Both the position numbers and the translations under genes were made by a program. Positions 2,278 to 39,700 of a stretch of DNA of 64,000 nucleotides are shown one piece after another. Under the pieces are notes generated by a model. It searched no databases. It worked only from the letters and a program-made list of their open reading frames with translations, and was not told the DNA's origin. The stretch comes from a virus (lineage: Duplodnaviria > Heunggongvirae > Uroviricota > Caudoviricetes), in the IMG/VR virus record IMGVR_UViG_3300033062_000614; one strand, 5' to 3'. Position 1 is the stretch's first letter, and each line of letters starts with the position of its first letter.

Positions 2278-3326
2278 AAATTGCTATGGTAGCCTTCCCA
2301 CTGGAGTTTGTTGGTGGGGCGAAAACTATGTTTTACAATGTTAAACAAGGCTTTGAAGATGTAGGTCATCAGGTTGGAACTTACTACATTACGACTAATA
2401 CGACCCGCAAACCCGAACCAGGTAAGAATGAATATGGTATTCAAAATATACTAGGGTTTGAAAAGCCTGAGTGGTTGAGGGAGACTTCAGATACTCTCAA
2501 CTCTTATGACTATCTTCTATATATAGGAGGATGCCCTCATCTATTGAAGAACTATCAAAAAGAGGGATGGAAGAAGCTCTATGATGTGGTAGATACCTCT
2601 AAGGTTATAGTAGCTATCATAGACTCCTATATCAGGAAATACTACCCTTGGCTTATTGATATACTTGAGAATAAGCGGGTAAAGGTGTATACTCATCACG
2701 ATAGGCTTGAGAAGTCTGTTGAGTTTTTGAAGACTATGAAAAAGCGGTTGCCCTATGCCTTTGTTATGAAACCCGATATGGGGGTATATCACGACCAGAA
2801 GAAAGAGCTAATAGTAGATACCTGTAACTTCAAAGGCTGTAAGCATAAGCATTTGTTGTTTGAATATCCGCAACTCCATAAGTTTGAGATTGTCCAGTTT
2901 GGAGATACTAACAACCCTTCCTATTATGTATTTGAGCAAGCCTTGAAACTCTACAACCTTAATATGTCAATACTAGGGTTCAAACCCTTCTTTGAGATAG
3001 CAGAGACCCTCAAGGTAGCTAAATACGGGCTTGACTTGTCTAAGTTTGGCGAGTTCTTTATCAATCTAGATAATGTTATGCTAGAGTATTGTGCTTATGG
3101 AGCGGTGCCTGTAACGATATTACCTGTAGGTAATGAGCCTTTAGGTGTGCTTCAGTTGACCTCTATAGCCGATTTGGGCAAGCTAGAGGACGAGGCTTGG
3201 AGACGACAGACTGCTGAGAGTAACTATGAGGCTCTAAAGACTCACTACGACTATAGGAATGTAGCAAAAGGACTAATTGACTTTTGGCAAGAGCCTTTCG
3301 TATCGGACGAATCAGGCTTTTGGTAA
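2274..3326 (+). CDS. hypothetical protein, possibly GT-B-type glycosyltransferase
   Basis: ATGA start-stop overlap. N-terminus 'MKIAMVAFPLEFVGGAKTMFYN' resembles the GT4 N-terminal Rossmann β1-loop (MKIxxV…GG). This is weak pattern-level evidence only. Confidence 0.25.
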   Translation: MKIAMVAFPLEFVGGAKTMFYNVKQGFEDVGHQVGTYYITTNTTRKPEPGKNEYGIQNILGFEKPEWLRETSDTLNSYDYLLYIGGCPHLLKNYQKEGWKKLYDVVDTSKVIVAIIDSYIRKYYPWLIDILENKRVKVYTHHDRLEKSVEFLKTMKKRLPYAFVMKPDMGVYHDQKKELIVDTCNFKGCKHKHLLFEYPQLHKFEIVQFGDTNNPSYYVFEQALKLYNLNMSILGFKPFFEIAETLKVAKYGLDLSKFGEFFINLDNVMLEYCAYGAVPVTILPVGNEPLGVLQLTSIADLGKLEDEAWRRQTAESNYEALKTHYDYRNVAKGLIDFWQEPFVSDESGFW

Positions 3327-3354
3327 ACAAAAACAAAAGGAAAGGAGGGTGGTG

Positions 3355-3579
3355 ATGGCACAGTTAGAAGAGTTGAAAAAAGGTATTGAGGATATCAATA
3401 CCCAAATAGCTGGGTTGAAGGAGCAGATGACTCCGTTACGTGAGCAGCGTGTAGCTTTAACTGCACAGCGTAAGGAAATCAGCTCCAAAGTAAAAGCTAT
3501 CAAGTCCCAAATAGCCCAGCTAAAACTGCAACGCAAGCAGTTAAAGGGCAAAGTCAAAACATCGAAAGTAAAGGACTGA
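3355..3579 (+). CDS. small coiled-coil protein
   Basis: Strong RBS AAAGGAGGGTGGTG then ATG at 3355. The track ORF from 3277 overlaps the upstream gene, so the start at 3355 is preferred. Heptad-rich K/Q/L sequence. Confidence 0.45.
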   Translation: MAQLEELKKGIEDINTQIAGLKEQMTPLREQRVALTAQRKEISSKVKAIKSQIAQLKLQRKQLKGKVKTSKVKD

Positions 3580-3581
3580 CG

Positions 3582-4175
3582 ATGGTAGTCTTTGTAGAAC
3601 CCCATTACGATGACTTTCTTTTGTCTGCAGGTATGTATTGTAAGAGCAGACCGATAGATGCCGTAGTAACGGTGTTCTACTCTGATTACAATAGTGGTGG
3701 GACAAGAGCCTTATGTGAAGACTTAGGGAAAAAGTATGTGGAGCTCAAGCTCCCAGATATGGATTGGAAGCAACCTTCTATCCTCTTTGACCCTACGTAT
3801 TTGCATAATGCTCTTGTTCCTCTGCTAAGTGAAGCTGAAACGATATTGACTGTCTTAGGTGTAGGACATCACGCTCACCGTTTTCTTAGAGAATTCATAT
3901 TAGAAAAGTTTAAGACTAAAGACCTCAGATTCTTCAGAGACTTTCCTCACGCCTATGACTCTACTAAGCTCAAGAACTTGCCGTTTGAAACCTATATTAA
4001 GGACTTTGAGTTGATAGAGCAGGTAGGCTCTATAGAGGGGTTCAATGATAAGGTTGATATGTTTAAGAAATACTATCCTTCTCAAAAGGGCATAATGTGG
4101 TTTGAAAAAGAGCAGTTTAGCAACCCTGTGTTTGAAGAGATTTACAGGTTCAAAGAAATGGATAGGCTATGGTAA
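3582..4175 (+). CDS. LmbE/PIG-L-like deacetylase family protein (putative)
   Basis: N-terminal 'VVFVEPHYDDFLLSAGMY' resembles the LmbE/PIG-L motif (AHPDDE…G.GG) with His-x-Asp-Asp. Modest confidence. Confidence 0.3.
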   Translation: MVVFVEPHYDDFLLSAGMYCKSRPIDAVVTVFYSDYNSGGTRALCEDLGKKYVELKLPDMDWKQPSILFDPTYLHNALVPLLSEAETILTVLGVGHHAHRFLREFILEKFKTKDLRFFRDFPHAYDSTKLKNLPFETYIKDFELIEQVGSIEGFNDKVDMFKKYYPSQKGIMWFEKEQFSNPVFEEIYRFKEMDRLW

Positions 4176-9145: not shown

Positions 9146-9664
9146 TTGACGGCTCTAGTTAGGAGTGCCGTGGAGTTTGAACTCGTAACTAAATACCGAA
9201 ATAAATTATACTCTTACGCACGTAGGTATAATGTTCCGCCAGAAGATGTATTCCAAGAAGCTCGTATAGTTGAATGGCGGATGTCCAAATACTCCCCAGC
9301 ACACAAAGTCTCCTACTTCCTCAAATCCTGTAAAATCAATACGTTGAAAATCGCTAACTTCGGTGTAGTTGAATTAGATGAAAAGGCTCAAGAATGTTTG
9401 ATAAGCTCTGGAGACTTTGACCGCTGGTTCGAGATATATGTGGAAGAACTAGCGGATATTTTGTATAAGATAGATGAAGTGGTTGGCGATATGTTTTTAG
9501 TTAAGGTCAACAACGAACTATCTTGGGCGTCAATAAGGCGTTCCTTCTTTAATGAAGTTCCAAAGAATAGATATTGGCATAATGTTCAAGCGATTAAAGA
9601 GAAAGCCTACGATTATATTAAGGGCGAGGATAAGCCTTTTCTACAACTATTAGAGGCTGTATGA
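9146..9664 (+). CDS. hypothetical protein, possibly sigma-70 region-2-like transcription factor
   Basis: TTG at 9146; an in-frame GTG at 9170 has AGGAG upstream. 'YARRYNVPPEDVFQEARIVEWR…YSPAHKVSYFLKSC' weakly resembles sigma region 2.1–2.3 (cf. T4 gp55, a region-2-only sigma). Confidence 0.3.
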   Translation: MTALVRSAVEFELVTKYRNKLYSYARRYNVPPEDVFQEARIVEWRMSKYSPAHKVSYFLKSCKINTLKIANFGVVELDEKAQECLISSGDFDRWFEIYVEELADILYKIDEVVGDMFLVKVNNELSWASIRRSFFNEVPKNRYWHNVQAIKEKAYDYIKGEDKPFLQLLEAV

Positions 9665-12582
9665 AGATATTGATTGTAGCTGACCCACATTTGCATACCT
9701 GGTCTTCCTTTAACCTAAACAAAGCTTCAGAGTTGTCGAGGCGTTTGCAAGAACAGGACGATATTCTATCCCAAATATGTAACCTAGCAGAAGATAGAAA
9801 GGTTGACTCTGTAGAGATATTGGGAGACATATTCCATAAGGTTGGAGAGATACCTGTATTGTGCTTGAATATCTTTGATACTTTTCTAACTACTTTAGAT
9901 GATTTGGAGATACCTTATCATATTACTACAGGAAACCACGATTTAGTAGTTAGAGATAATCCTGAATGGTATCACTCTGCAACTCAACTTTTTGATAAAT
10001 GCGATGACGAGGTATACGGTCAGCTCAAAATTAAGCGTGTAGGGTATTCGGAGCACTTAGATTACGACCAAGTTAAGGGTTATGACCTAGTGTTTTTACA
10101 CAAGACCCCGTATGGGTCGAAGTATGGAAACTATACCTTTGATGAGGGTGTAGATTGGAAGACGCTGTCTGAAAACAACCGCTTGGTATTCTTTGGACAT
10201 ATACACGAAAGACAAGAGCTTTCAAAGAACTGTATTGTAGTAGGCTCTCCTATGCACTTAACCTTTGGCGATGTGGGAGAGAGGGGTGTATATATTGTAG
10301 ATACCGATACTTGGTCTATTGAATTCATCAAACTCAAATATCCTGAGTTTAGAAATGTTGAAAGCCTGTCAGAAGTTCAGGATTCATACAACTACTATAA
10401 GGTCAAAAATGTTAGAGGACAAGTTTCTACTGTTAGTAATGTTATTAGTGTTTCTGTGCCTGATTTCTTCGATGAACGATTGAAGTCTGATTCGTTTGAT
10501 GGTATTCTCAAAGAGTGGCTTCAGTTAAATCAAAAAGATGAAACTTACTTAGAGCTTATCAAAGATTTGGCGGTTGAGAAGTTTAAGCTAGCAAAACAGG
10601 TATTTCAGGGCGTTCTAGCTTCAGTTAAGGTAAAAGACTTTATGAGCATAGATAAGGCTACCTACCAAGTGAGGAAAGGCTTTATCCTTGTTAAGGGACG
10701 CAATGAGAGCTTCTCTTCCAATGGGGCGGGTAAGACCTCTTTGTTTGAGGCAATCTTTTGGGGACTTTTTGGAGAAACTACTAAGGGGCTAACTGGAGAT
10801 GATGTAATACGTAGAGGTCAAAAAGATTGCGTTGTAGAGCTAACTCTCATAAACGACAAGGGAATGTATTTAGTAAGGCGTAGCCGTAAGGCAGGGCTTA
10901 GCATAGTTATACCTGCAGATGCGGACGATGACGTAGTATTAGGGCTTAGAAAGACTGACCAGCAGACTTTGCTAGAAGAGAAGATTTTGGGCTTTGATAA
11001 AAATGTCTTTTTGGCAAGTTGCTATTTTAGTCAAGAGAACCTAGTAATGTTGACGGGTATGTCAGATACCGAGAAGACTAATACTATTACTAGCTTACTA
11101 GGTTTTGAAGTCTATGACGACTTATATGACGGAGTCTTTGATAGAATGAAAGACTTCGAGAAAGATATAGTAGACCGCAAAGTAGATGTAGAATTCCAAG
11201 AGAAGCTAGTAATTCAACAGAAGACAGAACTTGAAGGCTTAGAACGTATGGTGCAAGAGAAGCAAGATGAGATTAAGTATTATCAAAATCGTATCATAGA
11301 GGTTCAAAACAATATTGTAACCTATAAACAAGCTCTCCAAAAGGTTGAAACGATTGAAACGATTGACTACGATGCTATCTTGAAAGAGCTATACGATATG
11401 GAGCAAATTTTCAATAATCAAAAAGATAGTATTGATGAGTTTATTTCTAATCTAGACCAGAAAGACTTTCAAACTAAGACCAGACAAAGAGAGCTTCAAG
11501 CTATTCGGGGTCAATACAAGATTAACATAGTATCCTTACAAAGAGAGATTACAGCTTTGGAGGAGTTGAAGTTTGGTGAGCGTTGCGATAAGTGCGGGGC
11601 TATTATATCCGAAGCCAATGCCGAGATTTTCAAACACGACAAGGCTAAGGAGATTGAAGATATTATTGAGGTAAAGATTAAGGATATGGACTCCGAGTTC
11701 AGCGGTCTTGAGGTTACTAAGATGTCCATTGACAGGGCTAGAGTTGACCTTGACGAGAAGAGAAAGTCTGTCTTTGAGAAGCTTAACAAGGTTAGAAACG
11801 ATACTAGAGAGTCCTTGACCGAGAAGTTAGTATACCAAGCTAAGGTTCAAGATATTTCTAGCCGAAGGGGAGACTTAGAGTATAAGCTACGAGATTGTGA
11901 CAAGTCTATCAGTGATTACTCTGGTCGTATAGAAGAGATTGATGAGAAGATTAAGAAGCTTTGGGATGAAAAAGATATTAAACAAAAGGCTTTAGGAGAT
12001 GTAGAGAAACGAATAACAGAGCTTAATTGGATGATAGACAAAACCCAAAAGGGTATAGAGGCTCTAGACTTTTGGAAAGTTGCCTTCTCTCCAAAGGGTA
12101 TACGGGTTTTGTTATTAGATAGGTTCTGTAATGAGATAAACTCAATTGTTAATAACTACCTAGCTTCAATTAGCAACGGTTCTATGTCATTGGTAATCAA
12201 ACCTACCTCTATATTAAAGTCTGGCGAAGAACGCAATAAGTTAGGACTAGATATACTTCTAGGTGGGGTAGTTGTTAAATATGAATCGTTGTCTGGTGGA
12301 GAGAAGAGGCGGGTAGATGTAGCTCTTTGCTTAGGGCTTAACGAATATATAAGTAAGCGGTTTAACCTAAAGAACGGCTTGCTAGGTTTCTTAATACTAG
12401 ATGAAATCTTCAGCTATTTGGATTCAAGCGGTGAGGAAAGTATAGGGTCTTTACTATATCAAGAGGGCTTAAAGAAAGCAATCTTTGTTATATCCCATAC
12501 CGATGAATTGACAAACTATGCGGCAGATACTTGGACTGTTTCTAAAGTTAATGGAGTCTCAACATTGGAGTTGACACATTGA
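9661..12582 (+). CDS. Fused SbcD/Mre11-like nuclease – SbcC/Rad50-like ATPase (gp47–gp46-like in one polypeptide)
   Basis: N-terminal calcineurin-like phosphoesterase motifs 'VADPHLH', 'LGDIFHK', 'TGNHD', 'GHIHE'. Then Walker A 'GRNESFSSNGAGKTSLFEAI', a long coiled coil with zinc hook 'CDKCG', ABC signature 'LSGGEKRR', Walker B 'LILDEIF' and H-loop 'VISHTDE'. Confidence 0.85.
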   Translation: MKILIVADPHLHTWSSFNLNKASELSRRLQEQDDILSQICNLAEDRKVDSVEILGDIFHKVGEIPVLCLNIFDTFLTTLDDLEIPYHITTGNHDLVVRDNPEWYHSATQLFDKCDDEVYGQLKIKRVGYSEHLDYDQVKGYDLVFLHKTPYGSKYGNYTFDEGVDWKTLSENNRLVFFGHIHERQELSKNCIVVGSPMHLTFGDVGERGVYIVDTDTWSIEFIKLKYPEFRNVESLSEVQDSYNYYKVKNVRGQVSTVSNVISVSVPDFFDERLKSDSFDGILKEWLQLNQKDETYLELIKDLAVEKFKLAKQVFQGVLASVKVKDFMSIDKATYQVRKGFILVKGRNESFSSNGAGKTSLFEAIFWGLFGETTKGLTGDDVIRRGQKDCVVELTLINDKGMYLVRRSRKAGLSIVIPADADDDVVLGLRKTDQQTLLEEKILGFDKNVFLASCYFSQENLVMLTGMSDTEKTNTITSLLGFEVYDDLYDGVFDRMKDFEKDIVDRKVDVEFQEKLVIQQKTELEGLERMVQEKQDEIKYYQNRIIEVQNNIVTYKQALQKVETIETIDYDAILKELYDMEQIFNNQKDSIDEFISNLDQKDFQTKTRQRELQAIRGQYKINIVSLQREITALEELKFGERCDKCGAIISEANAEIFKHDKAKEIEDIIEVKIKDMDSEFSGLEVTKMSIDRARVDLDEKRKSVFEKLNKVRNDTRESLTEKLVYQAKVQDISSRRGDLEYKLRDCDKSISDYSGRIEEIDEKIKKLWDEKDIKQKALGDVEKRITELNWMIDKTQKGIEALDFWKVAFSPKGIRVLLLDRFCNEINSIVNNYLASISNGSMSLVIKPTSILKSGEERNKLGLDILLGGVVVKYESLSGGEKRRVDVALCLGLNEYISKRFNLKNGLLGFLILDEIFSYLDSSGEESIGSLLYQEGLKKAIFVISHTDELTNYAADTWTVSKVNGVSTLELTH

Positions 12583-16952: not shown

Positions 16953-17126
16953 ATGGTATTCGCTCATATCTGTTGTCTTTGTAACAAGACTATCAAACTG
17001 CCATACCGTCAAGATGGAATGTTTATATGCAATTGGTGTGTGGATAAACTACGTAAACTTCTGGGCATAAAGGTCGAAATGCCAGATAGAAAGGCAGTTA
17101 AAGCTAGTCATACACTCTGTGATTAG
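16953..17126 (+). CDS. small zinc-finger protein
   Basis: RBS TAAGGAG then ATG 16953; the track start 16893 overlaps the upstream gene. 'CCLC…CNWC' is a two-CxxC zinc ribbon. Confidence 0.4.
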   Translation: MVFAHICCLCNKTIKLPYRQDGMFICNWCVDKLRKLLGIKVEMPDRKAVKASHTLCD

Positions 17127-17135
17127 GGAGGAGTA

Positions 17136-17366
17136 ATGAGTAATGAGCAAGTTATAACCTTAGCAATTCATAAGATAAGGGAGGGGCTTACGCTTTTAGC
17201 TGACGCTTGCCACATAGAAGAAAATGTTGGCAGTGAGGTCAGCTGTTTTTTTAAGCGTAATGGAGATGGAATGAACTTTGATAGTATAGTTATTAGACAG
17301 ACCGACAAACTCTGTCGCAGAAAATTGCCTAGACTTGAAATCAATGGTAAGGAGAGAAAGAAATGA
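17136..17366 (+). CDS. hypothetical protein
   Basis: RBS AGGGAGGAG then ATG. Confidence 0.4.
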   Translation: MSNEQVITLAIHKIREGLTLLADACHIEENVGSEVSCFFKRNGDGMNFDSIVIRQTDKLCRRKLPRLEINGKERKK

Positions 17367-17554
17367 TTGAGGAAGGTTCTTTAGTTGAGGTTTCAATAGG
17401 CTTTCCTGGTCGTCCTTATACGGGTGAGATGTTATCAGGGAAGTATATAGATTACACAGACCAATTTCTTAGGTTAGAAGACCCTAAAACTAATCTTGAA
17501 GCTTGGATACCTTGGGATAAGGTATTGAAAATTGTGGAGGTGGAGAAAAAATGA
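17363..17554 (+). CDS. hypothetical protein
   Basis: ATGA coupling, RBS GGAGAGAAAG. Confidence 0.4.
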   Translation: MIEEGSLVEVSIGFPGRPYTGEMLSGKYIDYTDQFLRLEDPKTNLEAWIPWDKVLKIVEVEKK

Positions 17555-18009
17555 ACTGCCCAGAGTGTGGAATAGAAGTAGTTGTAGGTGGGGACGATAG
17601 AGAAGGAACTCACTATTACGAGCCTGTCAATAAAGCTCTAGCCCTAGTAGTGCACGATTATAAGATACCATTTTACTGCACTATGTGCAATGCTTTGAAG
17701 TTTCCTATGAAAGCTCATAACAACTATGTAGTAGTTTGGGAACCGCTCCCAGATGTTATTAATGGTATCATTATACCTGATGATGCAAAGAAGGGCTTTA
17801 GAAAAGGGCTAGGTGTAATACTATCTTCAGGCTCTGGGGTATATAATAAGGAACTCAAGAGATACGTTCCTAATGTTACAAAGCCAGGAGATGTAGTATA
17901 CTACGACCGTTCTGTGCCTTGGGTTGTTGAAGCTTATGGAGTTGATGGAAAATTGTATGAGGTTCCCATAATGCCAGAACAAGACATAAAGGCTTGGGTA
18001 AGTGAATAG
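17551..18009 (+). CDS. Zinc-ribbon–GroES-like co-chaperonin fusion (gp31/Cpn10-like)
   Basis: The C-terminal ~95 aa align by eye with E. coli GroES. 'IIIPDDAKKGFRKGLGVILSSGSG' matches '[22 protein letters not shown]', 'VKPGDVVYYD' matches 'VKVGDIVIFND', and 'GKLYEVPIMPEQDIKAWVS' matches 'NEEVLIMSESDILAIVE'. N-terminal 'CPECG…CTMC' is a zinc ribbon. Confidence 0.6.
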   Translation: MNCPECGIEVVVGGDDREGTHYYEPVNKALALVVHDYKIPFYCTMCNALKFPMKAHNNYVVVWEPLPDVINGIIIPDDAKKGFRKGLGVILSSGSGVYNKELKRYVPNVTKPGDVVYYDRSVPWVVEAYGVDGKLYEVPIMPEQDIKAWVSE

Positions 18010-18020
18010 GAGGTGAATAT

Positions 18021-18380
18021 ATGAAATTGAAGCGTGGATTTACTTTGGTTGAGGTTCTGATAGTTGTAGCGATTATTAGTTTGTTGGCTGCGATTGCTAT
18101 ACCGAATATGCAAGCATCGAGAGCTAAAGCAGGGCTACCGCCTTTGGGCTCTCATATACATAGAGAGGTAGCTCGCAATGCGGGAGGGGGTGATATTATG
18201 TTTAGGTTTGCTGAGTTACTTGTGATAATTGCGTTGTTGTATTTGATAGTAAACTTGTTGAGATATGCATTCTTTAGAACCAGCTCTGATGGTCATTGGC
18301 TATTTGGGCTCTCAGATGTTTGGGTAAAGAAAGATGAAACTAAGAAAAATGAAAGTGAATCTGAAAGGAGACGAAGATGA
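18021..18380 (+). CDS. Type IV prepilin-like protein (class III signal peptide)
   Basis: 'MKLKRG|FTLVEVLIVVAIISLLAAIAIPN' is a textbook prepilin leader: basic leader, Gly-1, Phe+1, Glu+5 and a hydrophobic helix. A second TM helix follows, then a basic C-tail. Confidence 0.65.
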   Translation: MKLKRGFTLVEVLIVVAIISLLAAIAIPNMQASRAKAGLPPLGSHIHREVARNAGGGDIMFRFAELLVIIALLYLIVNLLRYAFFRTSSDGHWLFGLSDVWVKKDETKKNESESERRRR

Positions 18381-19387
18381 ACAGGAGAGGTCAAGCACTC
18401 GGAATTGGGGCGGCAGTTATAGTTGTTATGGCTTTAGTAATCTTCATTATGACCTTTGGCTGGGTCAATGTGCACCCAACAGAGGTTGCAGTAGAGATTA
18501 ACAAAGCTGCGGGCAAAATCTATGATGCTCCGAAAGGGGTAGGCTATCATTTCTTCAATCGTTGGATTACGGATATGGTAGTCTATAAGGTTGCGGCAAG
18601 AGCATTTCCTGCAGAGCAGCTAGGCGAAGCTGATAGGAAGCTCTATCAATTAGATGTAAAAACAAAAGATGGACAAAATGTAGTCTTGGATTTAACAGTA
18701 TTGTATATGTTGAAGTCCAATGAGGTTCCCGCTTTACATCAACAGGTAGGTCAAAACTATGAAGACCAGATTATATTACCTCAAATAAGGTCAGAGGCTA
18801 GACTAGCAATTGGTGCTTATGCAGCAGAGGAAATATATCAGGGTAAGGTTAGGGATGAGATACAAACTGAAGTTAGACGGAAGTTGTCTCTTGCTCTATC
18901 TAAGTATCCTGCAATTCAAATAAATGATACTTTGATTAGAAACTTCACCTTTAGTCCAGAGTTTGAGAAGGCTATTGAACGAAAGAAGTTAGCTGCTCAA
19001 GAGGTAGAAATCAATAAGAACCTTGCCTTAGCAGCTGAAGAGAATGCTAAGAAAGTTGAGGCAGATGCTCGTGGCGGTAAATTGCAAGCTATACAGGTTG
19101 CTGAAGGTGCTGCCCAAGCAGTTAAGATAAATGCTGAGGCAGAAAGGTATAAACTTGAACAAGAAGCCATTGGTAAACTTGCTGGGTATAAGGCTGATGC
19201 AGAGGGCAAAAGACTTCAGGCTGAGGCTTTAGGTGGGGGTAAGAACGTTGTAGCTTTGAAGTTTGCTGAGATGTTATCACCTACCTTAAAGATAGTTGGA
19301 GTGCCTGTAGGGGCGAACTCGACTTCTATAATGGATTTGAATGGAGTTTTCAAAGGGTTGTTCAGCAACTTGGATGAATCAAAATGA
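18377..19387 (+). CDS. SPFH/band-7 (HflC/HflK/prohibitin-like) membrane protein
   Basis: N-terminal TM helix then 'VNVHPTEVAVEINKAAGKI…' SPFH core. Ala/Glu-rich C-terminal coiled coil 'AQEVEINKNLALAAEENAKKVEADARGG' typical of HflK/C and flotillins. Confidence 0.65.
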   Translation: MNRRGQALGIGAAVIVVMALVIFIMTFGWVNVHPTEVAVEINKAAGKIYDAPKGVGYHFFNRWITDMVVYKVAARAFPAEQLGEADRKLYQLDVKTKDGQNVVLDLTVLYMLKSNEVPALHQQVGQNYEDQIILPQIRSEARLAIGAYAAEEIYQGKVRDEIQTEVRRKLSLALSKYPAIQINDTLIRNFTFSPEFEKAIERKKLAAQEVEINKNLALAAEENAKKVEADARGGKLQAIQVAEGAAQAVKINAEAERYKLEQEAIGKLAGYKADAEGKRLQAEALGGGKNVVALKFAEMLSPTLKIVGVPVGANSTSIMDLNGVFKGLFSNLDESK

Positions 19388-19620
19388 AAGATAGGGGCAT
19401 CAGACGTCAAACAACTGAAAAGGTAATTTACAAGCGGTTGAAGTTAGTGAAGTCTTTTGACCCTAAGCATTACGAGAAGATGAAGGCAGAGCCTCACAGG
19501 GTTGCTAAGCAACATCCATTTGATTGCGGTAATCCAAAGTGTGGGCTCTGCCATTCAGATAAGCTAAGCAAGAAACCTAAGAAACCTGTAGTAATTGGAG
19601 AGTTAGAGGGCGATTACTAA
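19384..19620 (+). CDS. hypothetical protein with CxxC…CxxC
   Basis: ATGA coupling. 'CGNPKCGLC'. Confidence 0.4.
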   Translation: MKDRGIRRQTTEKVIYKRLKLVKSFDPKHYEKMKAEPHRVAKQHPFDCGNPKCGLCHSDKLSKKPKKPVVIGELEGDY

Positions 19621-19841
19621 TGGCTAAGTATTACCTTGAGATTATGGTAAAGGATGAACTTGGAAACAAAGTAGATTCGGTAGTCTCTGAAGTAGTTTGG
19701 TTAAGACCCGATGATGCCCGTGGGTGGATGAAAGCTCTGTATCTTATGATGAACAATATGATTACAGGTAAGATGATTAGGGCAGAAAAGCCTGTTAAAG
19801 CAAAACCCAATTTGTTGAGGCGTTGGTTTGGAAGACCCTGA
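19620..19841 (+). CDS. hypothetical protein
   Basis: TAATG coupling. Confidence 0.4.
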   Translation: MAKYYLEIMVKDELGNKVDSVVSEVVWLRPDDARGWMKALYLMMNNMITGKMIRAEKPVKAKPNLLRRWFGRP

Positions 19842-19986
19842 AAGGTTTGAAATAGACTACGAAGAATACAAGAAAATGCTCTCTTTGAATGACCATCAAG
19901 AGCAGGTAATCATAGTAATGTCTCTTGAGCAAGTTGAGAAGATATTGGAATGGTATTGTGAGAAGTTCGGCAAGATAGTTATTTAG
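19828..19986 (+). CDS. possible small ORF (36–52 aa)
   Basis: Open frame filling the 19842–19995 gap (TTG 19828 or ATG 19876 to TAG 19984). Weak RBS; not in the ORF track. Confidence 0.15.
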   Translation: MEDPERFEIDYEEYKKMLSLNDHQEQVIIVMSLEQVEKILEWYCEKFGKIVI

Positions 19987-19995
19987 GAGGCTCTT

Positions 19996-20331
19996 ATGAC
20001 GTATGAAGACTTTGACAAGCTGTATGCTAAGATGGTAGAGGAAGAAGTGGGCATAGGACATTCTAAGGGGCGGGAATACACAATGGGTGATAGGTTAGAT
20101 AACTTCAAACGTATAGGGGCTGAGATGGGTATCAGCCCTAAGCAAGCCCTATGGGTCTACCTAAAGAAGCACCTTGACAGTATTGCTAACTACATATGCA
20201 ATGAGGTAAAGTGTGATGCAGGTAGCAAGCCTAAGTTATCAGAGCCGATTGAGGGACGTATACTAGATGCTAGGGTCTACCTAGCTTTGTTGAGAGGCTT
20301 AATTGAAGAAGATAAGCAAGCAAGACAATGA
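19996..20331 (+). CDS. hypothetical protein
   Basis: RBS TAGGAGG then ATG. Confidence 0.45.
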   Translation: MTYEDFDKLYAKMVEEEVGIGHSKGREYTMGDRLDNFKRIGAEMGISPKQALWVYLKKHLDSIANYICNEVKCDAGSKPKLSEPIEGRILDARVYLALLRGLIEEDKQARQ

Positions 20332-20641
20332 GTGGTTGCTGAAGGCTCTTGCTGACCTTAGAAACAAAGACCAGAAGTTCGACAAGTTAATCAAACTTGT
20401 AAGCAAAGCCTTCAAAACTCAAAACCTTAAACTTCTCAAGCGGTTGGTTAGCTTTGTAACTAAGGATAACGACAAGACTTGGGAAGGGGTAATGAGTGCA
20501 GTAGCTGCTACTAGGGATACGAAGTTAGAGAGGGGTTTGCTTCAGATGGCAGAAGATATGACTTTGTTGAGAAATAGACTACAAAGGCTAGTAGAAGATG
20601 TGGAGAGTAATGGATGGGGAGAGACAAAGTCATATGGTTGA
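20303..20641 (+). CDS. hypothetical protein
   Basis: TTG start overlapping the upstream gene by 29 nt, so the start is uncertain. Confidence 0.3.
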   Translation: MKKISKQDNEWLLKALADLRNKDQKFDKLIKLVSKAFKTQNLKLLKRLVSFVTKDNDKTWEGVMSAVAATRDTKLERGLLQMAEDMTLLRNRLQRLVEDVESNGWGETKSYG

Positions 20642-20708
20642 TTTTAGCTTTGTTGATGACTCTTTGGATGATACAAAAAGGAGTCTTTAGGGAGGGTTTC
20701 TAGCTAAG

Positions 20709-21293
20709 ATGAGCACGCTGGATACTTGGAAGTTTCTACAAGAGAATCAATACTTTGAAAACCATAGGCTTTATGTATGGGAACCTGATGCACCTAAATG
20801 GGTAAAGCTAGAAGATATTAGGGGCAAAGCTATAGTAGAGATTGGTGGGGGCTTTGGCAGGCAGACCGCTTACTTTGGCAAGATTGCTCGCAAAGTTTAT
20901 ATGATAGAGGTATCAAAGACTATTATAGAGAAAGCTAAGAAGTTTCTTGATAAGCATAATGTTCATAATGTTGAGTTGTTACTAGTTGACGATTACTATG
21001 AGAAGATACCTTTTAATATAGATTATGCCTATTCTTATTTAGTCTTTCAACATATTACTCCTATGCAAACTCAAGAGTATATCGATGCTATGTATCGTAA
21101 GCTTGCTCCTTGTGGTAAGATAAACTTTCAATTTAGATTAGGCGAAGGGGCTATGTATTTACCAAAGCTAGAGCCTACAGTATTATATACTGTCAAAGAT
21201 GTAAGGCGTATGGTAAATAGATTTCATATACTACAAGAAACTGTAAAGGATGAACACATTTTTATTTACGCTAGTAAACCGCCTCAAAGTTAG
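20709..21293 (+). CDS. Class I SAM-dependent methyltransferase
   Basis: Motif I 'VEIGGGFGRQTAYF' (E/DxGxGxG) followed by an acidic motif II 'YMIEV'. RBS AGGGAGGG. Confidence 0.55.
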   Translation: MSTLDTWKFLQENQYFENHRLYVWEPDAPKWVKLEDIRGKAIVEIGGGFGRQTAYFGKIARKVYMIEVSKTIIEKAKKFLDKHNVHNVELLLVDDYYEKIPFNIDYAYSYLVFQHITPMQTQEYIDAMYRKLAPCGKINFQFRLGEGAMYLPKLEPTVLYTVKDVRRMVNRFHILQETVKDEHIFIYASKPPQS

Positions 21294-22469: not shown

Positions 22470-23185
22470 ACTTAGAAAGGTTCAAAGTTGAAGAAAAGAT
22501 ACGAGAGAGCCTTAGAAAAAACAGAGGCGATGTCTTACAGGTAGCAGAAGAGACAGGGTTCTCACTTCTTGTCATTATGAGGGTTGAAGACAAGATGGAG
22601 AAAAAGGAAGACCGTCAACCCTTTCATATAGAGGTAGGCAAGAATCTCACTAAAGAGATACTACTTGGCAGGCACCAGAGAATACATCATCTGGTGCGAA
22701 TGTTAAATAAGCTAGAAGACCGAGAACAAAAGGAAGTTTCAACTTGTTGTAGTTTTCCTTTTATCTTTACGATTAAGGAACAAAAGAAGGTAACTGTCTG
22801 TAAGAAATGCGGTGAGGTTTGCCGCACCCTGCTTGTTGATAGCCTTGAGACCTATGATAAGAAGATGGAGATTATCAGAGAGCTAAGAGCTGAAGAAGAT
22901 AAGTTAGTTGATTGGCTTGCTAAGATGGGCTATACTAATGCACCTATGCAACCTCAAATGCCTACTGCTGTCATAAAGAATACACAATTGATATTTGGAA
23001 ACCCCTCTAAGCTAAGTAGCGAAGAGCGTCAAGCTATCACAGATTTGAAAGATATGCCTCAACAAGATGTAGAGAAAGTTATCAAAGAGATGGAGAAAGT
23101 GCTTATGACTGCTAAATATAGAGATGCTGAAGGAAACTTTATAGACCCTTCACTCAAAGAAATCGATGGACCAAAACAGCAATAA
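22466..23185 (+). CDS. hypothetical protein, candidate terminase small subunit
   Basis: Sits immediately upstream of the large terminase and overlaps it. N-terminal HTH-like 'RGDVLQVAEETGFSLLVIM'. The call rests on position only. Confidence 0.3.
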   Translation: MNLERFKVEEKIRESLRKNRGDVLQVAEETGFSLLVIMRVEDKMEKKEDRQPFHIEVGKNLTKEILLGRHQRIHHLVRMLNKLEDREQKEVSTCCSFPFIFTIKEQKKVTVCKKCGEVCRTLLVDSLETYDKKMEIIRELRAEEDKLVDWLAKMGYTNAPMQPQMPTAVIKNTQLIFGNPSKLSSEERQAITDLKDMPQQDVEKVIKEMEKVLMTAKYRDAEGNFIDPSLKEIDGPKQQ

Positions 23186-25106
23186 GTATGAGAAATTAGA
23201 TACACTCAACGCCAATACTAATGCTATTATCTATAAAGAACAACCAGCAGATATTATTCATTTTGTTTGTGACTCCTACTATTTAGGGGAGTCAACAGAT
23301 AATGGTAGAGCAATCTACCCTGCTTGGAAAGAAAAGTTGATGGAGATGTTTTTCGACAACTCCAGATACTTAGTTGTTCTAACAGGTGCTATAGGTATAG
23401 GCAAGACCAATACTGCTATCTTAGGTATGCTATATGTCTTGCACCGCATTCTCTGCCTCAAAGACCCTTTCGCTTTCTTCAATGCCGTTGACGTAGGCAA
23501 GTTTACCGTTTCTTTCTTTAACCTTACCAAAACCCTCAGTCAGTCAAAAGGTTTCAATACAATGCAAGACTACTTGATGAAGTCTAAGTGGTTTTGGGCA
23601 CACGGAGGTGTTTTGAGAGGGGCTAAGGACAAGTATATGGAGTTGCCTATCTTTGATTGGAACTTAGCCTCTCCATATGCTAAGGGTTATGGTAGTATTG
23701 GGGCGCACGTTATTACGTCCTTGATGGATGAGATTGATAGTCCATCAGAGTCAGAGAACCAGAAGCTTAGGGTATTGAACGCATACGAGGCTACTGTTAG
23801 ACGGTTCGACTCCCGCTTTGTCCGCAAAGGTTCAACTATGGGTAGATTCTTCTTAGTATCTTCAAAACAGGATGAGTTGTCTTTTTTGAATACCTTTGTG
23901 GAAGAGATGAAGTCATCAGGCAGAGTATTCATCGTAGATTTACCGCTTTGGAAAGCTAAAGCTCACTTACCTAAACAATACTCTGGAGATATGTTCCCTG
24001 TTATGGTAGGCGATACCTATACGGAGCCTAAGATACTGAGCTCTGAAGATGAAGTCAACCAATCAAAACTCCAAGGCTTTGAAGTTATTGATGTGCCTGT
24101 AGAATATAAGAACGACTTTGAAAGGGATATCATAGGAGCTCTTAGGGATATAGCAGGGGTATCGGTCAAAGGCGTAAGAGCTTCAAAGTTCTTTCCATCC
24201 GAAAGATTTCTTACGGCTTGTTATGACGAGAACAAGCCTGACCCTGTTAGTAAGACTACTATTGAGATAGGTTTACAAGATAAGCAAGAGTTGATAGAAT
24301 ACATAGATTTGAGTTTGATACGAGTGCCTTACGGAATTCCAAGATGTATCTCTTGCGATATTGCCTTCACTAATGACGCACTAGGTATAGCTATGTCAGG
24401 TATTGTAGGTTGGACTGAAGTGCAGTCTGAGAAGAGTGATGGGACTTTCGCAAGCGTTAAGGCTCCTGTAGTAGAGACCGACATTGTGATACGGTTGAAG
24501 GCTAGAGAAGGTGACCGTATACCTATGCACAAGGTTAGAAAGCTAGTGCTAGACTTGAGAGCTAAGGGCTTTAACATAATCAAGTTTACCTCAGACCTTA
24601 TGCTTGCATCTGAAGATACCTTCCAAATACTCCAAAGAGTTGGAATTGAGTGCCAATACTTCTCTGTTGACAAGACAATGCAACCATATCTAGACTTTAG
24701 GAATATGGTATACGAGAACCGTTGGCTCTGTCACAGACACGAGTATCTTCACTTCGAGCTCAAGAACTTGGAAGTTGACAGCGTAAAGGGTAAGATTGAA
24801 CATCCTGACAAAGTCAAAGACGTTCTGCTTTTGAAGGATGGGAGCGTCAAAGATGTAGTCCTCACAGGCTCTAAAGACTTGTCTGACTGCGTTGTTGCTT
24901 CAGTTATCAATGCTGCTCTTAGTCAAAAGACTCCTGTTGATGTTGCTAAGATGAAAGAGATTATGCGTAAGTCTATGGCTTCTTCAGAGGCAGAGGCAGA
25001 GAAACACAAGTATTGGTGGGCTTTTGACGAGAGGACGGGCAAGCCAGTGGTTGGCACAAGTGATGATATGAATAAGTTTAAGAACTTGTTGAAGAAACAA
25101 TTGTAG
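23166..25106 (+). CDS. Terminase large subunit (gp17-like)
   Basis: Walker A-like 'LTGAIGIGKTNTAI' (cf. T4 'LSRQLGKTTVVAI'). C-terminal RNaseH-like nuclease start 'CDIAFTNDALGIAMSGIV' (cf. T4 'DCSEGRGQDYHALHIIDV'). 646 aa, upstream of the portal. Confidence 0.6.
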   Translation: MDQNSNKYEKLDTLNANTNAIIYKEQPADIIHFVCDSYYLGESTDNGRAIYPAWKEKLMEMFFDNSRYLVVLTGAIGIGKTNTAILGMLYVLHRILCLKDPFAFFNAVDVGKFTVSFFNLTKTLSQSKGFNTMQDYLMKSKWFWAHGGVLRGAKDKYMELPIFDWNLASPYAKGYGSIGAHVITSLMDEIDSPSESENQKLRVLNAYEATVRRFDSRFVRKGSTMGRFFLVSSKQDELSFLNTFVEEMKSSGRVFIVDLPLWKAKAHLPKQYSGDMFPVMVGDTYTEPKILSSEDEVNQSKLQGFEVIDVPVEYKNDFERDIIGALRDIAGVSVKGVRASKFFPSERFLTACYDENKPDPVSKTTIEIGLQDKQELIEYIDLSLIRVPYGIPRCISCDIAFTNDALGIAMSGIVGWTEVQSEKSDGTFASVKAPVVETDIVIRLKAREGDRIPMHKVRKLVLDLRAKGFNIIKFTSDLMLASEDTFQILQRVGIECQYFSVDKTMQPYLDFRNMVYENRWLCHRHEYLHFELKNLEVDSVKGKIEHPDKVKDVLLLKDGSVKDVVLTGSKDLSDCVVASVINAALSQKTPVDVAKMKEIMRKSMASSEAEAEKHKYWWAFDERTGKPVVGTSDDMNKFKNLLKKQL

Positions 25107-36234: not shown

Positions 36235-36752
36235 TGAAGAATCTTCTAAATATAACTTTGGGTGTTGCGGCAGTTGTGTCAGCAATACCACAAACACAGC
36301 CTCCTATTACCCTAGCTGAGAGAGGTATCAACACACAAAAACTGCTTGATGCCGTAAAGCTGGTAGAGTCAAATGGAGGAAAAGATACCGAGCCTAGATT
36401 CGAATATTCGGTATACCGCAAGCTACGCAGAGACTACAACATATTGAGACCGCATATACAAGAAGCTATACAGAAATACGGCTTCAAGAAGTTGGCGACC
36501 TCGTATGGACCATATCAAGTCCTTGGTTCGACTGCGGTATTCCTAGGCTTCGAGGGTGACCCTAGAGAGCTAATGCAAGAGTCCGTCTGTAAAGAGTGGG
36601 CATCCCGATACGTTAGGTATCTGATTTCCTCGGATAAGACTCATAGCCTAACCGATGTCGTATCGGCATACAATGCAGGGCTAGGTGGCATAGGTAAAAA
36701 TCCAGACTATACAAATAGAATTCTAGAATGCTATAAGGGAGGCGATAAATGA
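36234..36752 (+). CDS. Secreted lysozyme-like/lytic-transglycosylase-like protein (putative)
   Basis: Signal peptide 'MKNLLNITLGVAAVVSAIPQ'. 'LVESNGGKD…YGPYQV' weakly resembles the SLT/GH23 E-S…G…YGLMQ motif. Confidence 0.35.
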   Translation: MKNLLNITLGVAAVVSAIPQTQPPITLAERGINTQKLLDAVKLVESNGGKDTEPRFEYSVYRKLRRDYNILRPHIQEAIQKYGFKKLATSYGPYQVLGSTAVFLGFEGDPRELMQESVCKEWASRYVRYLISSDKTHSLTDVVSAYNAGLGGIGKNPDYTNRILECYKGGDK

Positions 36753-39700
36753 AAGGGCTTTATGATTTCCTAAAAGAAGGAGATAACATATTTGAAAAGA
36801 CATATACTTGGGGCTATGAGGTCTTGAAAGCTCCAGAAGGTGGACCAGGGACTGCCACATTGAAGAGCACTATAAAGGGCATTCCTGGCGTAAGACTTGT
36901 AACCTTCCCTTCTGCTTATATGGGTCATACATCTGTTAGAATCACTGCCAATTCTAGAGAAGCCCTTTCTAAAGCCCTTACTATATTACAAGATTATGGC
37001 TACATTGACAGTGTTGCCGATGGAATGAGAAGCGTAACATCAGAAGCAGAATATGATGCCCATCAACCTGCTGACGTTGCTGCGGGCAAGGAAGTTGCTA
37101 GTCAATCTGCTGAGTTTCACAAAGCCCACGAACAGGTCTTTGGAAGTTCCTCTGGTGGAGCCCAAGATGTGCAAGAAACTGGAGAGATGGGTCACGGTGA
37201 TATTACACAAGGTGGGGAAGATTATGAGTGGGCAAAGGCTATTGAGGAGGACGTCAAGGAGATAGAAAAGATTACAAAGGGTAAGTTGAAATTTGAGGGT
37301 ATGAAGCCCTTCGACAAATACCGTGGTCCATATGCTGCTACTAGCTTAGGTAGGATTTGGGATGCAGGAGTTGAAGGTGAGAAATACTTGTTTATGGAAA
37401 ACTCCAACTGGGTTGGCACAGCCCAAGAGCTAGCACAAGCAATCAATGGAGATGCGACCGCTAGGGCTTTAGTAGTCAACCAAGCCAAGACCGCTGCTGG
37501 AGAGCCTACCGAACCTGACTTTAACCCTGCCCAAATGAAGTTCCCCTTCGCTGAGTCCTGTGTCAAGAGTATTAAAGAAGCAGACATAGACAAATATACC
37601 AAGCACGAGGAATATACTCCTGAAGAGTTTGACAAAAGGGGATTCTATCTTTCAGATGACCAGAAGAAAACCGTAGAGACTGCTAAAGCGGAGGGCAAGA
37701 AACTGTTAGCTTCTATCTCTTACCTACCTTTTGGAAACTATCTTATGCATCTGTCTATAATAGAGGGCAAGGTTCCTAACCCTAAAGATACCGAAGACAA
37801 GCAAAGGCAAGATATGACTGAAGCCCTTGACCCTAGAATACCCGACCAAGCAATTGACTTTCGGTATATCTCTGGAACCAAGACCTTCAAGAACGGCACG
37901 AAAGAGTATAACTTGTTAAATGCTCTAGAAGATAAGGCTTGGGAAGACTACTTAGATGTTATGGCAGGGTCAGGCACTACGGTTGAATACGACCTCGTCA
38001 GAGATGTCTTTACTGCTAGTAATGTAGTAGGGGAATCTACTAAGCGGTCAAAGTCTGCTAAGGTATTGAGAGAACAGAAGATAAACGAACAAGAACCCCC
38101 GCCAGAACCAGCTCCAGAGACAGGTGCAGAGATACCAGAAGAGCCAACCCTAGAAGAGCCTCCTGCAGAGCCTCCTAAAGAAGAGAAACCTAAAGAAGAG
38201 GAAGAGCCTAAGAAAGAGGAGCCTGTCAAGGAGAAACCCTCATACACTAAGGAATACTTCGGGTCAAAAGGAACTGATAAGCACTATTACTTTATCCACA
38301 AGATGACCGAAGATGGTATGACGGTTGACGATTTACAAGTCCTTGATATTGAGGATAACATAGTCTTCTCCGCCAAAGAAAAACAAATGGATGTATTAGG
38401 TGAGAGGGCTTTCTTGAAAGCAGCAGCTGAAGCTACAGGCATAGATATGATAGCCTATGATGTGGTAATGCGGTATAAAATGCTTGAAGAGGAGCCTCCT
38501 TTGGAAGAGAAACCCGAAGACGAAGTGCCTGAGTTAAAACCCAAAGAGGAGGAAAAACCCGAACAGAAGTCTGAGCCAGAAGTTGGACCAAAGAGTGAAG
38601 AGGAGGCTCCTCCCAAAGAAAGCTTTAAGCGACCCGCCAAACAAAAGATTGAGGAAGGTTACGAGCAGATTGGTTCAGGTAAGTTACCTAACAAGTATTA
38701 CGTAACAGGCTCTGGCGATTACTATATGATGGTAAAGAGAGGCACGCTTGACTGGGCTTCTGAGCAACTTAAAGACTTCAAGCCTAAGTCTAAGAAGTAT
38801 GGGGTATTCAATACCTATAAAGAGGCGACTGCTGCAGTAGATACCGCATCAGCCTCAGAGTTTGGTAGTGAACCTAATCCTGCAGGTATCAATACTATAA
38901 CTGTTGAAGACCATTTGACAGGAGAGCTTCTACACTATGGGTTTGTTGCCTATAAGCAAGCTGGGTATCGCTATGAGATTGAGCAGTTTGGCGATACTAA
39001 GTTTACAGCAGAGAAGATGAAACAAGCTGGGCAGACCTTTGAGACTGGAGACAGTCCTGGTCCAGAGAAGTGCGTAAAGTGCGGAGTTCATATTGGCACT
39101 AAGGTAGCACAGAACTTCGGTGGCAAGTGTCCTGAGTGTTGGGAAGAGGACGAGAAGGCTGCTGGAAAAATGGACGAAGCCAAGCTTCCTAAGGTAGTCC
39201 TTGCAGACTTGAAGAAGCTTATGTCTGAGCCGTATGACGAGATTGCTCACAAGCTAGATGTATCTCACGAAACCGTCAAGGCTCTGCTTCAGGCTCTTAT
39301 GGTGCACGCTGAGGGAGAGAAAGAATCAATCTATGACAAGAAGCTTAAAGAGGGCACTTGGGCTACTCCAAATACTCAAGCTAAGAAACAAGCTCTGTTA
39401 GCATTCCTTGATGGGTTAGACGAAGGTGAGCTTGAGCCCTTGGAAGACTTCTTGTATTCTAAGCTCGGAGATGATGAGCTCTTTGATGAACTTGAAGATA
39501 TTGTTAAGCCCGTATGCAAGCCTATTGCTAAGGCTATTAGAAAGAAATTGAAAGACCTCAACATAGTAATAGAGTCCTCGATGGACGAAACTGTAAAGCT
39601 TCGCAAGATGACCGATGATGACCGTATGGGCTTTGCAGGTGCAGAGGGTGAGGCAATGATTGGAGATATACATACCTCGGAGGGTGCAGGTATTGTTATC

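Follow-up and report, generated by a model that had tools for sequence, protein, structure and literature searches.

A headless type IV prepilin fused to a small membrane partner of a prohibitin-like SPFH protein in an uncultured myovirus-type phage

Two overlapping genes of an uncultured virus of the Caudoviricetes are the subject of this study. They lie on the + strand of IMG/VR record IMGVR_UViG_3300033062_000614, a stretch of 64,000 nucleotides that was analysed over its full length and is called the window here, and they encode proteins of 119 and 336 amino acids (aa). The open reading frame (ORF) of the 119-aa protein (18021-18380) is a chimera, in which a headless type IV prepilin is joined through an unconstrained linker to a conserved single-pass membrane protein of about 60 aa. 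By sequence comparison, the latter represents a previously undescribed protein family, defined in this analysis, whose members adjoin or are fused to SPFH proteins; in the window, this is the prohibitin-like 336-aa protein. Phage pilin mimics and phage-borne SPFH proteins are of kinds already known; new here are the fusion to the undescribed SPFH partner and the repeated linkage of SPFH genes with genes for small prepilin-like proteins (mini-prepilins) across unrelated phages. Both ORFs are found where an original prediction, made from the letters of this DNA, had placed them, on the + strand.

The 119-aa ORF joins two proteins

The N-terminus of the 119-aa protein reads MKLKRG/FTLVEVLIVVAIISLLAAIAIPN (slash, predicted cleavage site), with F1, E5 and P22 of a mature pilin all present, and it combines a basic leader, Gly at -1, Phe at +1 (F/M in the general motif), Glu at +5 and a run of ca. 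20 hydrophobic residues, i.e., the features of a class-III signal. The recognition of such a leader in the original prediction survives profile searches, since both the Pfam model N_methyl (PF07963; 34.7 bits, cut-off 21.2, residues 1-27) and TIGR02532 (35.4 bits, cut-off 16.3) match well above their thresholds. None of the equivalog models for pilins and pseudopilins reaches its cut-off (e.g., PilA_Myxo 34.9 vs 400 and GspG 29.1 vs 88.9 bits), and their matches are confined to residues 1-39. The globular alpha-beta head is absent after the alpha-1 helix, from which the 22-aa linker leads into a second transmembrane (TM) helix; host-type pilins have 60-110 residues more beyond the alpha-1 region. 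When 5.8 billion proteins were searched with the 119-aa sequence, the sole full-length match was a 99% identical copy (L001; L and P numbers denote related loci). The other 28 matches align with no more than the N-terminal 25-45% of the query (27-31% in most cases); they represent ordinary pilins, 88-179 aa long, and several are named Candidatus Omnitrophota. To the N-termini of pilins of that phylum the alpha-1 helix is 70-77% identical, over ca. 30% of the query. A tblastn search of phages with the 119-aa protein gave no match, a result that weighs neither way, as the low-complexity filter probably masks the helix. The L001 copy lies on an independent 3.7-kb contig of the Joint Genome Institute (JGI) that carries the same ORF pair with one substitution (A28T) in the 119-aa protein, which rules out an assembly error of the window as the source of the fusion. 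With the window, L001, L013, and L014, the prepilin-partner fusion is present on four contigs that come from different samples. Within the 64-kb window there is only one ORF with a GFxxxE motif, and it is the one attached to the SPFH gene.

The original prediction had also noted a second TM helix and an arginine-rich tail and had read these as a deviation from the pilin plan. Both are indeed present (a hydrophobic helix at about residues 62-85 and a terminal ERRRR), but they are no modification of a pilin. Residues 60-119 match a protein encoded on its own in L003 (BLASTP, E 8e-13), and in three viral loci whose SPFH proteins are 56-66% identical to that of the window (L002, L003, and L006) a gene for a single-TM protein of 65-71 aa, devoid of any pilin part, lies directly 5' of the SPFH gene. 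Stand-alone partners of 59-71 aa in this same position occur in L002, L003, L006, L010, L015, L026-L028, L055, and L057, and the partner forms the N-terminus of fused SPFH proteins in L007, P0084, P0047, L031, L032, L039, and L040. This homology with stand-alone and SPFH-fused proteins means that both the second helix and the tail are parts of another conserved protein, which has the signature E-x-L...N-[LI]-x-x-Y...G-x-(F)F-x-L-S-x-x-W. A custom hidden Markov model (HMM) built from partner sequences of related loci scores 90.5 bits on residues 65-121 of the stop-to-stop segment of the window and matches ca. 25 distinct loci of viral, metagenomic, and cellular origin (36 ORF segments, some representing one contig twice); every one of these matches adjoins an SPFH protein or is fused to it. 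No Pfam family was found on residues 60-119, and N_methyl is the only one on the whole ORF. An NfeD-type partner was considered and rejected, as neither residues 60-119 nor the complete 119-aa ORF contains an NfeD (OB-fold) domain.

In-frame fusion of the partner to SPFH is seen, e.g., on a viral contig (L007, 2772-3950), and likewise in P0084, P0047, P0129, and about 20 of the loci L067-L112, so that many Omnitrophota genomes have it; divergence is greater in the fused forms from cells (...VNLVQY...). Such gene fusions indicate that the two proteins act together. The 119-aa and 336-aa genes are themselves coupled through an ATGA overlap: the last codons of the former (GAA AGG AGA CGA AGA TGA) hold both the Shine-Dalgarno sequence of the SPFH gene and the ATGA stop/start, an arrangement that is alike in the relatives. 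The arginine-rich tail is largely a read-out of this Shine-Dalgarno sequence.

Table 1. Features of the two genes in the window and the basis of each assignment
Feature	Position	Strand	Basis
Shine-Dalgarno sequence AGGAGGTGA for the long product, ending 4 nt before ATG 18021	18008-18016	+	read from sequence
Chimeric ORF, long product, 119 aa: prepilin leader, alpha-1 helix, linker, small-TM SPFH partner	18021-18380	+	ORF list, Pfam, alignments
Class-III leader peptide MKLKRG; predicted prepilin-peptidase site after Gly6	18021-18038	+	motif match, TIGR02532 35.4 bits
Pilin alpha-1 helix, residues 7-37, mature F1...E5...P22	18039-18131	+	70-77% identity to Candidatus Omnitrophota pilin N-termini; pN/pS
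Poorly conserved linker, residues 38-59 (ca. 22 aa)	18132-18197	+	pN about equal to pS
Small single-pass membrane protein, probable short product, 60 aa	18198-18380	+	BLASTP, own HMM
Shine-Dalgarno sequence AAGGAG of the SPFH gene (18365-18370) inside the ERRRR codons, and ATGA overlap (18377-18380)	18365-18380	+	read from sequence
Prohibitin-like SPFH/Band-7 protein, 336 aa: N-terminal TM helix, SPFH domain, coiled-coil helix of ca. 90 residues, C-terminal segment	18377-19387	+	Pfam Band_7 99.7 bits, phrog_200, prohibitin 1/2 by sequence, AlphaFold2, Foldseek

Probable dual starts, selection and predicted topology

The 3' end of the linker retains a Shine-Dalgarno sequence (18183-18194, GGAGGGGGTGAT), which codes for GGGD ahead of Met60 (ATG 18198). 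All stand-alone partner genes have AGGAGG 6-10 nt before their ATG, and an in-frame AGGAGG-type element (GGGD) is kept in all three fusion lineages (the window, L013, and L014) despite their variable linkers. Because the internal ATG keeps its ribosome-binding site, two products are likely to be made, a long one from ATG 18021 and a short one of 60 aa from ATG 18198. The predicted use of two in-frame starts for a long and a short membrane protein in one ORF resembles that of S107/S105 of phage lambda, although the lambda extension comprises only 2 residues, against 59 residues with a whole TM helix here, and there is no sequence relationship.

Selection was assessed for the same three lineages, in which the SPFH proteins share 82-89% identity with the window protein. 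Since synonymous divergence (dS) is saturated, we quote the proportions of nonsynonymous (pN) and synonymous (pS) differences instead of a reliable omega. For the prepilin segment pN is 0.18-0.20 against a saturated pS of 0.57-0.74 (pN/pS roughly 0.25-0.35, uncorrected), for the partner half pN is 0.36-0.38, and in the linker pN is about equal to pS. The prepilin segment is thus under purifying selection, and its conservation exceeds that of the partner half. This constraint on the pilin helix indicates that it is translated and argues against meaningless read-through. It also makes it very improbable that the fusion is an accident, i.e., a decaying mini-prepilin that has lost its stop codon, leaving the short product as the only one that matters. 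Genes of this kind do decay, as the L003 mini-prepilin of only 36 aa exemplifies, and the linker evolves neutrally, but an accident accounts neither for selection on the prepilin segment that exceeds that on the partner half in three lineages, nor for a reading frame that stays open across linker indels among the lineages, nor for the strong Shine-Dalgarno sequence before ATG 18021.

By the positive-inside rule, the long form would be a hairpin: the pilin helix would run from inside to outside, the linker would be periplasmic, the partner helix would return from outside to inside, and the charged tail would be cytoplasmic. Such a hairpin keeps the native orientation of both the pilin and the partner helix. 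The SPFH domain would be periplasmic, as in HflK/C and prohibitin, and both the partner-SPFH fusions and a fusion in the reverse order in L016 (see below) fit this placement.

The SPFH protein is prohibitin-like

The identification of the second gene as SPFH/Band-7 in the original prediction is upheld by the Pfam model Band_7 (PF01145; 99.7 bits, cut-off 23.6), and the 336-aa protein also matches phrog_200. An N-terminal TM helix and a C-terminal coiled coil complete the features of a prohibitin-like SPFH protein. In an AlphaFold2 model based on 47 sequences (predicted local distance difference test score, pLDDT, 78.8) the TM helix spans residues 3-26 and is followed by the SPFH fold and a long helix (194-284). 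The closest solved chains by sequence are prohibitin 1/2 (E 3.5e-11), and Foldseek places the prohibitin complex first (E 4.5e-16), followed by erlin, HflK/C, stomatin, flotillin, and QmcA-YbbJ, all of which form cages. From these structural matches, assembly of the 336-aa protein into a ring or cage would be expected. The HflK/C-like identity that had been proposed is not borne out: the family models TIGR01933 (17.9 bits vs 159.4) and TIGR01932 (14.5 vs 134.4) are missed by more than 100 bits, and a paralogous pair of the hflK-hflC type was not seen, the window and all related loci having a single SPFH gene. The 336-aa protein is, therefore, a prohibitin-like SPFH protein and not an HflK/C orthologue.

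With prohibitin PHB1/2, HflK/C-FtsH, erlin, and stomatin it shares the layout of TM helix, SPFH domain, coiled coil, and C-terminal segment as well as the predicted extracytoplasmic position of the SPFH domain. It differs from HflK/C and prohibitin in being encoded by a single gene rather than as one of a hetero-pair, and no protease partner is encoded nearby. Operons of SPFH and NfeD proteins (QmcA-YbbJ, YqiK-YqiJ; 8z5g) offer another parallel, in which an SPFH protein is paired, and sometimes fused, with a small membrane protein and the genes are translationally coupled. The partner described here is, however, a 60-aa single-pass protein, unlike NfeD, and the SPFH domain is predicted to lie on the side of the membrane opposite to that of QmcA.

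These results bear on the function originally envisaged, in which a single atypical prepilin with a second TM helix of its own would be processed by the host prepilin peptidase (PilD) and poison the type IV pilus or the type II secretion system, and an HflC-like protein would modulate FtsH. Both the prepilin motif and the SPFH domain hold up, phage pilin decoys have precedent, and HflK/C cages are among the structural matches. The proposed architecture is nevertheless refuted, as the second helix and the tail are a different protein that is free of pilin in most relatives and in cells, and the HflK/HflC models fail on a single SPFH gene whose closest solved relatives are prohibitins. We consider this proposal improbable as it stands.

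Cellular origin of the module and probable host

More than 300 homologues of the SPFH protein were found at 62-70% identity. A scan of cellular genomes, restricted to one genome per species (46 loci, 239 kb in total), revealed the small-TM partner together with SPFH in 46 species-representative genomes at 61-70% identity. More than half of these are named metagenome-assembled genomes of Candidatus Omnitrophota/Omnitrophica, and the others are mostly recorded as uncultured Planctomycetia/Planctomycetales or uncultured bacterium, with single records of Elusimicrobia, Eisenbacteria, and Elulimicrobium. In about 20 of the 46 loci a diverged helix of the partner type is fused to the N-terminus of SPFH. 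In the loci examined, the surroundings are those of ordinary chromosomes: L010 has the gene order TrmE, ribonucleotide reductase, GGDEF protein, 59-aa partner, SPFH; in L008 a fused partner-SPFH form of 399 aa is flanked by ABC transporter and PAP2 genes; and IlvD, aminotransferase, and cytochrome genes surround the module in other cellular loci. The small-TM + SPFH pair is thus a cellular module typical of Candidatus Omnitrophota that was acquired by phages and is no phage invention.

The combination of Omnitrophota-type module loci with an Omnitrophota-like pilin helix suggests that the phage captured the module from its host and that this host was probably a bacterium of the Omnitrophota. 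Genes for type IVa pili are near-universal in this phylum (PMC10066038). The module offers a candidate link to phages of a phylum without cultured isolates, whose type IV pilus genes are thought to serve attachment to host cells, and the partner family pairs with a prohibitin-like protein that is near-universal in Omnitrophota. In four loci with more closely related SPFH proteins (L013-L016, 76-89% identical) the flanks compared have no further gene in common with the window, and the module therefore evidently moves between phages.

Mini-prepilins beside the module in phage-type loci

The pair that had been suggested to form a module does co-occur in related phages. Of 13 phage-type loci, 7-8 have a mini-prepilin at a distance of ca. 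1 kb or less from the module, as opposed to none of ca. 60 cellular loci, and an analogous pair is found in T4-like phages of Aeromonas (see below). ORFs that pass the Pfam threshold for a prepilin at this distance are those of the window/L001, L013, L014, L002, L003, L006, and L064. The two elements are joined in different ways. In the window/L001, L013 (KKRA/FTLVEV), and L014 (KKKA/FTLIEV) the prepilin is fused to the N-terminus of the partner; in L016 a sub-threshold prepilin (N_methyl 15 bits) is fused to its C-terminus; and separate downstream genes occur in L002 (two, of 36.8 and 20.3 bits), in L003 (the truncated gene mentioned above), on the 215-kb viral contig L064, and in L006, where the gene lies ca. 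0.8 kb downstream. E+5 is invariant in all copies. The remaining phage-type loci (L015, L007, L065, L026, and L028) have no prepilin; L026 carries DnaB and a TET-associated glycosyltransferase (TAGT) and is, therefore, a phage contig. The TAGT gene (2798-3592; PF20691, 111 bits) implies hypermodified DNA in that phage.

No prepilin was found within 2.5 kb of SPFH in the 46 cellular loci, in three cellular loci with called genes that were read, or in 24 metagenomic loci that were scanned, ca. 10 of which look cellular. Joint capture of pilin and SPFH from one host locus was accordingly rejected for want of a prepilin near SPFH in the 46 cellular loci. The mini-prepilins are a phage-specific addition to the small-TM + SPFH module.

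Some further observations concern individual loci. In L016 (4669-4986) the partner comes first and is followed by ...KNKKGG/VTLIELIMV..., where cleavage would part the two halves. A LAGLIDADG homing-endonuclease gene (L014, 4588-5004) sits between the prepilin-partner fusion and an SPFH gene whose product is 82% identical to that of the window, and it breaks the ATGA coupling. In L002 (1190-5761) and L003 (357-5723) a very long ORF for a DnaE-type polymerase (1523 and 1788 aa) precedes the module; these ORFs contain apparent intein-like insertions with HNH-like motifs and, by eye, a C-terminus resembling uracil-DNA glycosylase. On the viral contigs L064 (6567-7946; 215 kb) and L065 (1852-2933; 84 kb) LemA-like and TPM-domain-like genes were recognised by eye near the module, and this neighbourhood may be a larger island of membrane-protein genes.

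SPFH and mini-prepilin genes in cultured Aeromonas phages

The Pfam table published for Aeromonas phage 44RR2.8t lists ORF097c, with an N-terminal methylation motif, beside ORF098c, an SPFH protein (Nolan et al., 2006, PMC1524935). In our analysis ORF097c, directly downstream of the SPFH gene ORF098c, is a mini-prepilin of 72 aa (MKG/FTLIELMIVVVIIAILAAIAIPAF...; N_methyl 32.3 bits). Aeromonas mini-prepilins of 72-75 aa are present in 36 Aeromonas phage records, and the order SPFH, then mini-prepilin, recurs in phages 31.2, avDM9-HANS, and 60AhydR15PP, the last of which belongs to a different genus; the pair is thus retained in two or more genera of cultured phages. As in the window, an SPFH gene stands beside a mini-prepilin with a leader, F+1, and E+5 (44RR2.8t, 31, 25, and 60AhydR15PP). 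The pairs differ in that the Aeromonas SPFH protein, a "lipoprotein" of the phrog_200 type, is distantly related at most, that the prepilin is a separate gene, and that a small-TM partner is lacking, the product of ORF099c, which lies upstream, being soluble. A tblastn search with the SPFH protein of the window did not find the 44RR-type SPFH at E 1e-5. The latter is widespread, with 740 cultured-phage records that include T5-like and T4-like phages, and in 44RR2.8t (L017), Lw1 (L020), and IME13 (L114) its gene lies in the tk-rI region, near rI and rI.-1, which act in lysis inhibition.

SPFH and mini-prepilin genes are thus joined by three ways of fusion or adjacency in the uncultured clade and are adjacent in cultured Aeromonas phages, and this repeated joining suggests joint action.

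A possible decoy on a membrane scaffold

The best explanation that we can offer for the whole is that the chimera of headless prepilin and SPFH partner is a scaffold-borne decoy, carried by the phage and directed against the type IV pilus or the type II secretion system of its host; we advance it tentatively, and our confidence in it falls somewhat short of even. SPFH and its partner would assemble into a ring or cage and so define a microdomain of the inner membrane, and the host prepilin peptidase would trim the prepilin helix into a pilin decoy. Lacking a head and, in the window, being held by a second membrane anchor, this decoy could not be extruded into a fibre. Instead, it would interact with the pool of host pilins, or with the platform on which the pilus or secretion system is assembled, and so disturb either, and the SPFH scaffold would concentrate or protect it. 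The outcome would be that a likely phage receptor is shut down (superinfection exclusion) or that the envelope is re-purposed. None of the window proteins has more than two TM helices, and a PilD-like multi-TM prepilin peptidase is thus absent; a phage-encoded peptidase there is thereby ruled out, and any processing must rely on that of the host.

Precedents for virus-encoded pilins exist, and truncated phage pilins have been noticed only recently. P-FimU of F10-like prophages enters the pilus and blocks tip-binding phages, and six virulent Pseudomonas phages encode truncated PilA-like proteins of ca. 60 residues, which were proposed to enter pili without offering receptor sites or to block assembly (Sztanko et al., 2026, Cell Rep, PMC12952977). 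Like the prepilin half of the window protein, these truncated forms are phage copies of pilin N-termini reduced to the alpha-1 helix, with a sequence likeness that is limited to the generic motif. The window protein is unlike them in its fusion to a second membrane protein and its link to SPFH, and for a headless pilin fused in this way extraction into a fibre is unlikely. The archaeal virus SNJ2 encodes working type IV pilins, PilA1/PilA2 (Xiang et al., 2025, PMC12426801), which use the host assembly machinery; in contrast to the protein studied here they are full pilins that form dominant surface filaments in an archaeal system without SPFH.

A good deal weighs against the decoy explanation. 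The module lacks any prepilin in 5 of the 13 phage-type loci, and no prepilin was found near the 44RR-type SPFH gene in seven sampled cultured phages (T5-like Sw2, Privateer, Lw1, 7-11, two Vibrio phages, and AsFcp_2, which together cover T5-like, RB43-like, Vibrio, and Proteus phages). These cases mean that SPFH needs no prepilin, and with seven diverse phages without it we reject the pairing as a general rule for phage SPFH genes; the linkage is recurrent, not universal. Three of the loci (L013, L014, and L006) have Ala instead of Gly at -1. Ala at this position should lower cleavage by prepilin peptidase, in which case the helix may function without being cleaved. The C-terminal parts of the mini-prepilins are mutually unrelated and only the hydrophobic helix is common to them, which could be a plain membrane anchor, and adjacency might reflect a common hot-spot for membrane-protein morons rather than a joint function. 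The AlphaFold2 single-sequence model of the 119-aa protein (mean pLDDT 67; helices 9-36, 57-86, and 93-118) is modest in confidence and informs helix positions only, the topology assignment follows a rule of thumb, and the assignment of the host rests on similarity of sequence. Cleavage, methylation, localisation, the isoforms, and the pilus phenotype are all inferred.

Several of these points would be accommodated if the prepilin helix were a mere anchor or regulatory extension, with a dual-start pair like S107/S105 of lambda tuning an SPFH membrane scaffold that serves in membrane stabilisation, in the control of a membrane protease, or in the timing of envelope events. The retained internal Shine-Dalgarno sequence and ATG agree with such a role, as do the many genomes in which partner and SPFH are fused and hence act together, the restriction of common features to a hydrophobic helix, and the Ala at -1 that may block cleavage; moreover, the Omnitrophota have helices of the pilin type in great abundance, which makes them easy to capture. 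What is conserved is, however, specific to pilins (basic leader, G/A at -1, F+1, E+5, and P22), and E+5 is needless in a plain anchor. The free-standing mini-prepilins of L002, L064, and the Aeromonas phages, furthermore, cannot extend a partner N-terminally. We therefore regard the anchor as unlikely, but as an alternative to be taken seriously.

The decoy explanation can also be widened to a device common to phages of Aeromonas and phages that probably infect Omnitrophota, made up of an SPFH cage, with or without the partner, and a headless pilin. The cage would keep or shield pilin-like helices within a microdomain of the inner membrane, and this would trap the pool of pilins or pseudopilins or jam the assembly platform. 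In this general form it appears rather unlikely to us. If it were true, this device would represent a new means, based on a membrane scaffold, by which type IV pili or type II secretion are switched off once the cell is infected, and it would provide a first function for the SPFH genes of hundreds of cultured phages. The cultured Aeromonas phages (44RR2.8t, 60AhydR15PP) are a tractable system in which the idea is directly testable.

Genomic setting of the gene pair

All long ORFs of the window are on the + strand, and its G+C content is ca. 0.40. Matches in PHROGs include a DnaE-type polymerase, an SbcD-SbcC fusion, and a Holliday-junction resolvase, as well as a portal, a protease, a major head protein, and a tail sheath, a set of replication and head/tail proteins by which the window is a large myovirus-type phage. 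A blastn search with positions 17000-21000 gave no match in 50,697 phage records, and no cultured phage is thus similar to this region at the DNA level. The ORF pair sits among small genes that separate the replication from the packaging modules, directly after the gene for a GroES-like protein. Neither the 119-aa nor the 336-aa protein is matched by the PADLOC models for anti-phage defence.

From its small size, its two hydrophobic helices, and its charged tail, the 119-aa protein could also be a class II holin or pinholin, with the pair forming part of a lysis system, and in some T4-like phages the SPFH gene does lie near rI. The second helix and the tail, however, constitute a conserved cellular protein that is often fused to SPFH and occurs in ordinary chromosomal contexts, no endolysin gene is nearby, the neighbours being the GroES-like protein and small unknown ORFs, and no holin family was matched in PHROGs. 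This possibility is extremely improbable, and we have rejected it because the second TM half is the cellular SPFH partner and the surrounding genes do not form a lysis cassette.

A search with PHROGs did not locate the lysis genes of this phage within the window. The only other small protein of the window with two TM helices (41137-41409, 90 aa) has a weak match to phrog_26616 ("lipoprotein"), and its ORF overlaps the start of an unmatched ORF of 201 aa; it could be a lysis-gene candidate. Two large ORFs, of 1349 aa (36749-40798) and 646 aa (23166-25106), have no PHROG match at 1e-5, and the latter directly precedes the portal gene, at the position where the large terminase would be expected. 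The SbcDC nuclease is encoded by one fused ORF of 973 aa (9661-12582), with matches to an SbcD-like PHROG at residues 1-311 and to an SbcC-like PHROG at 311-970. The GroES-like protein just 5' of the chimera (17551-18009; Cpn10 23 bits, residues 71-148) has an additional N-terminus of ca. 70 aa with a zinc-ribbon-like CxxC...CxxC motif (MNCPECG...CTMC).

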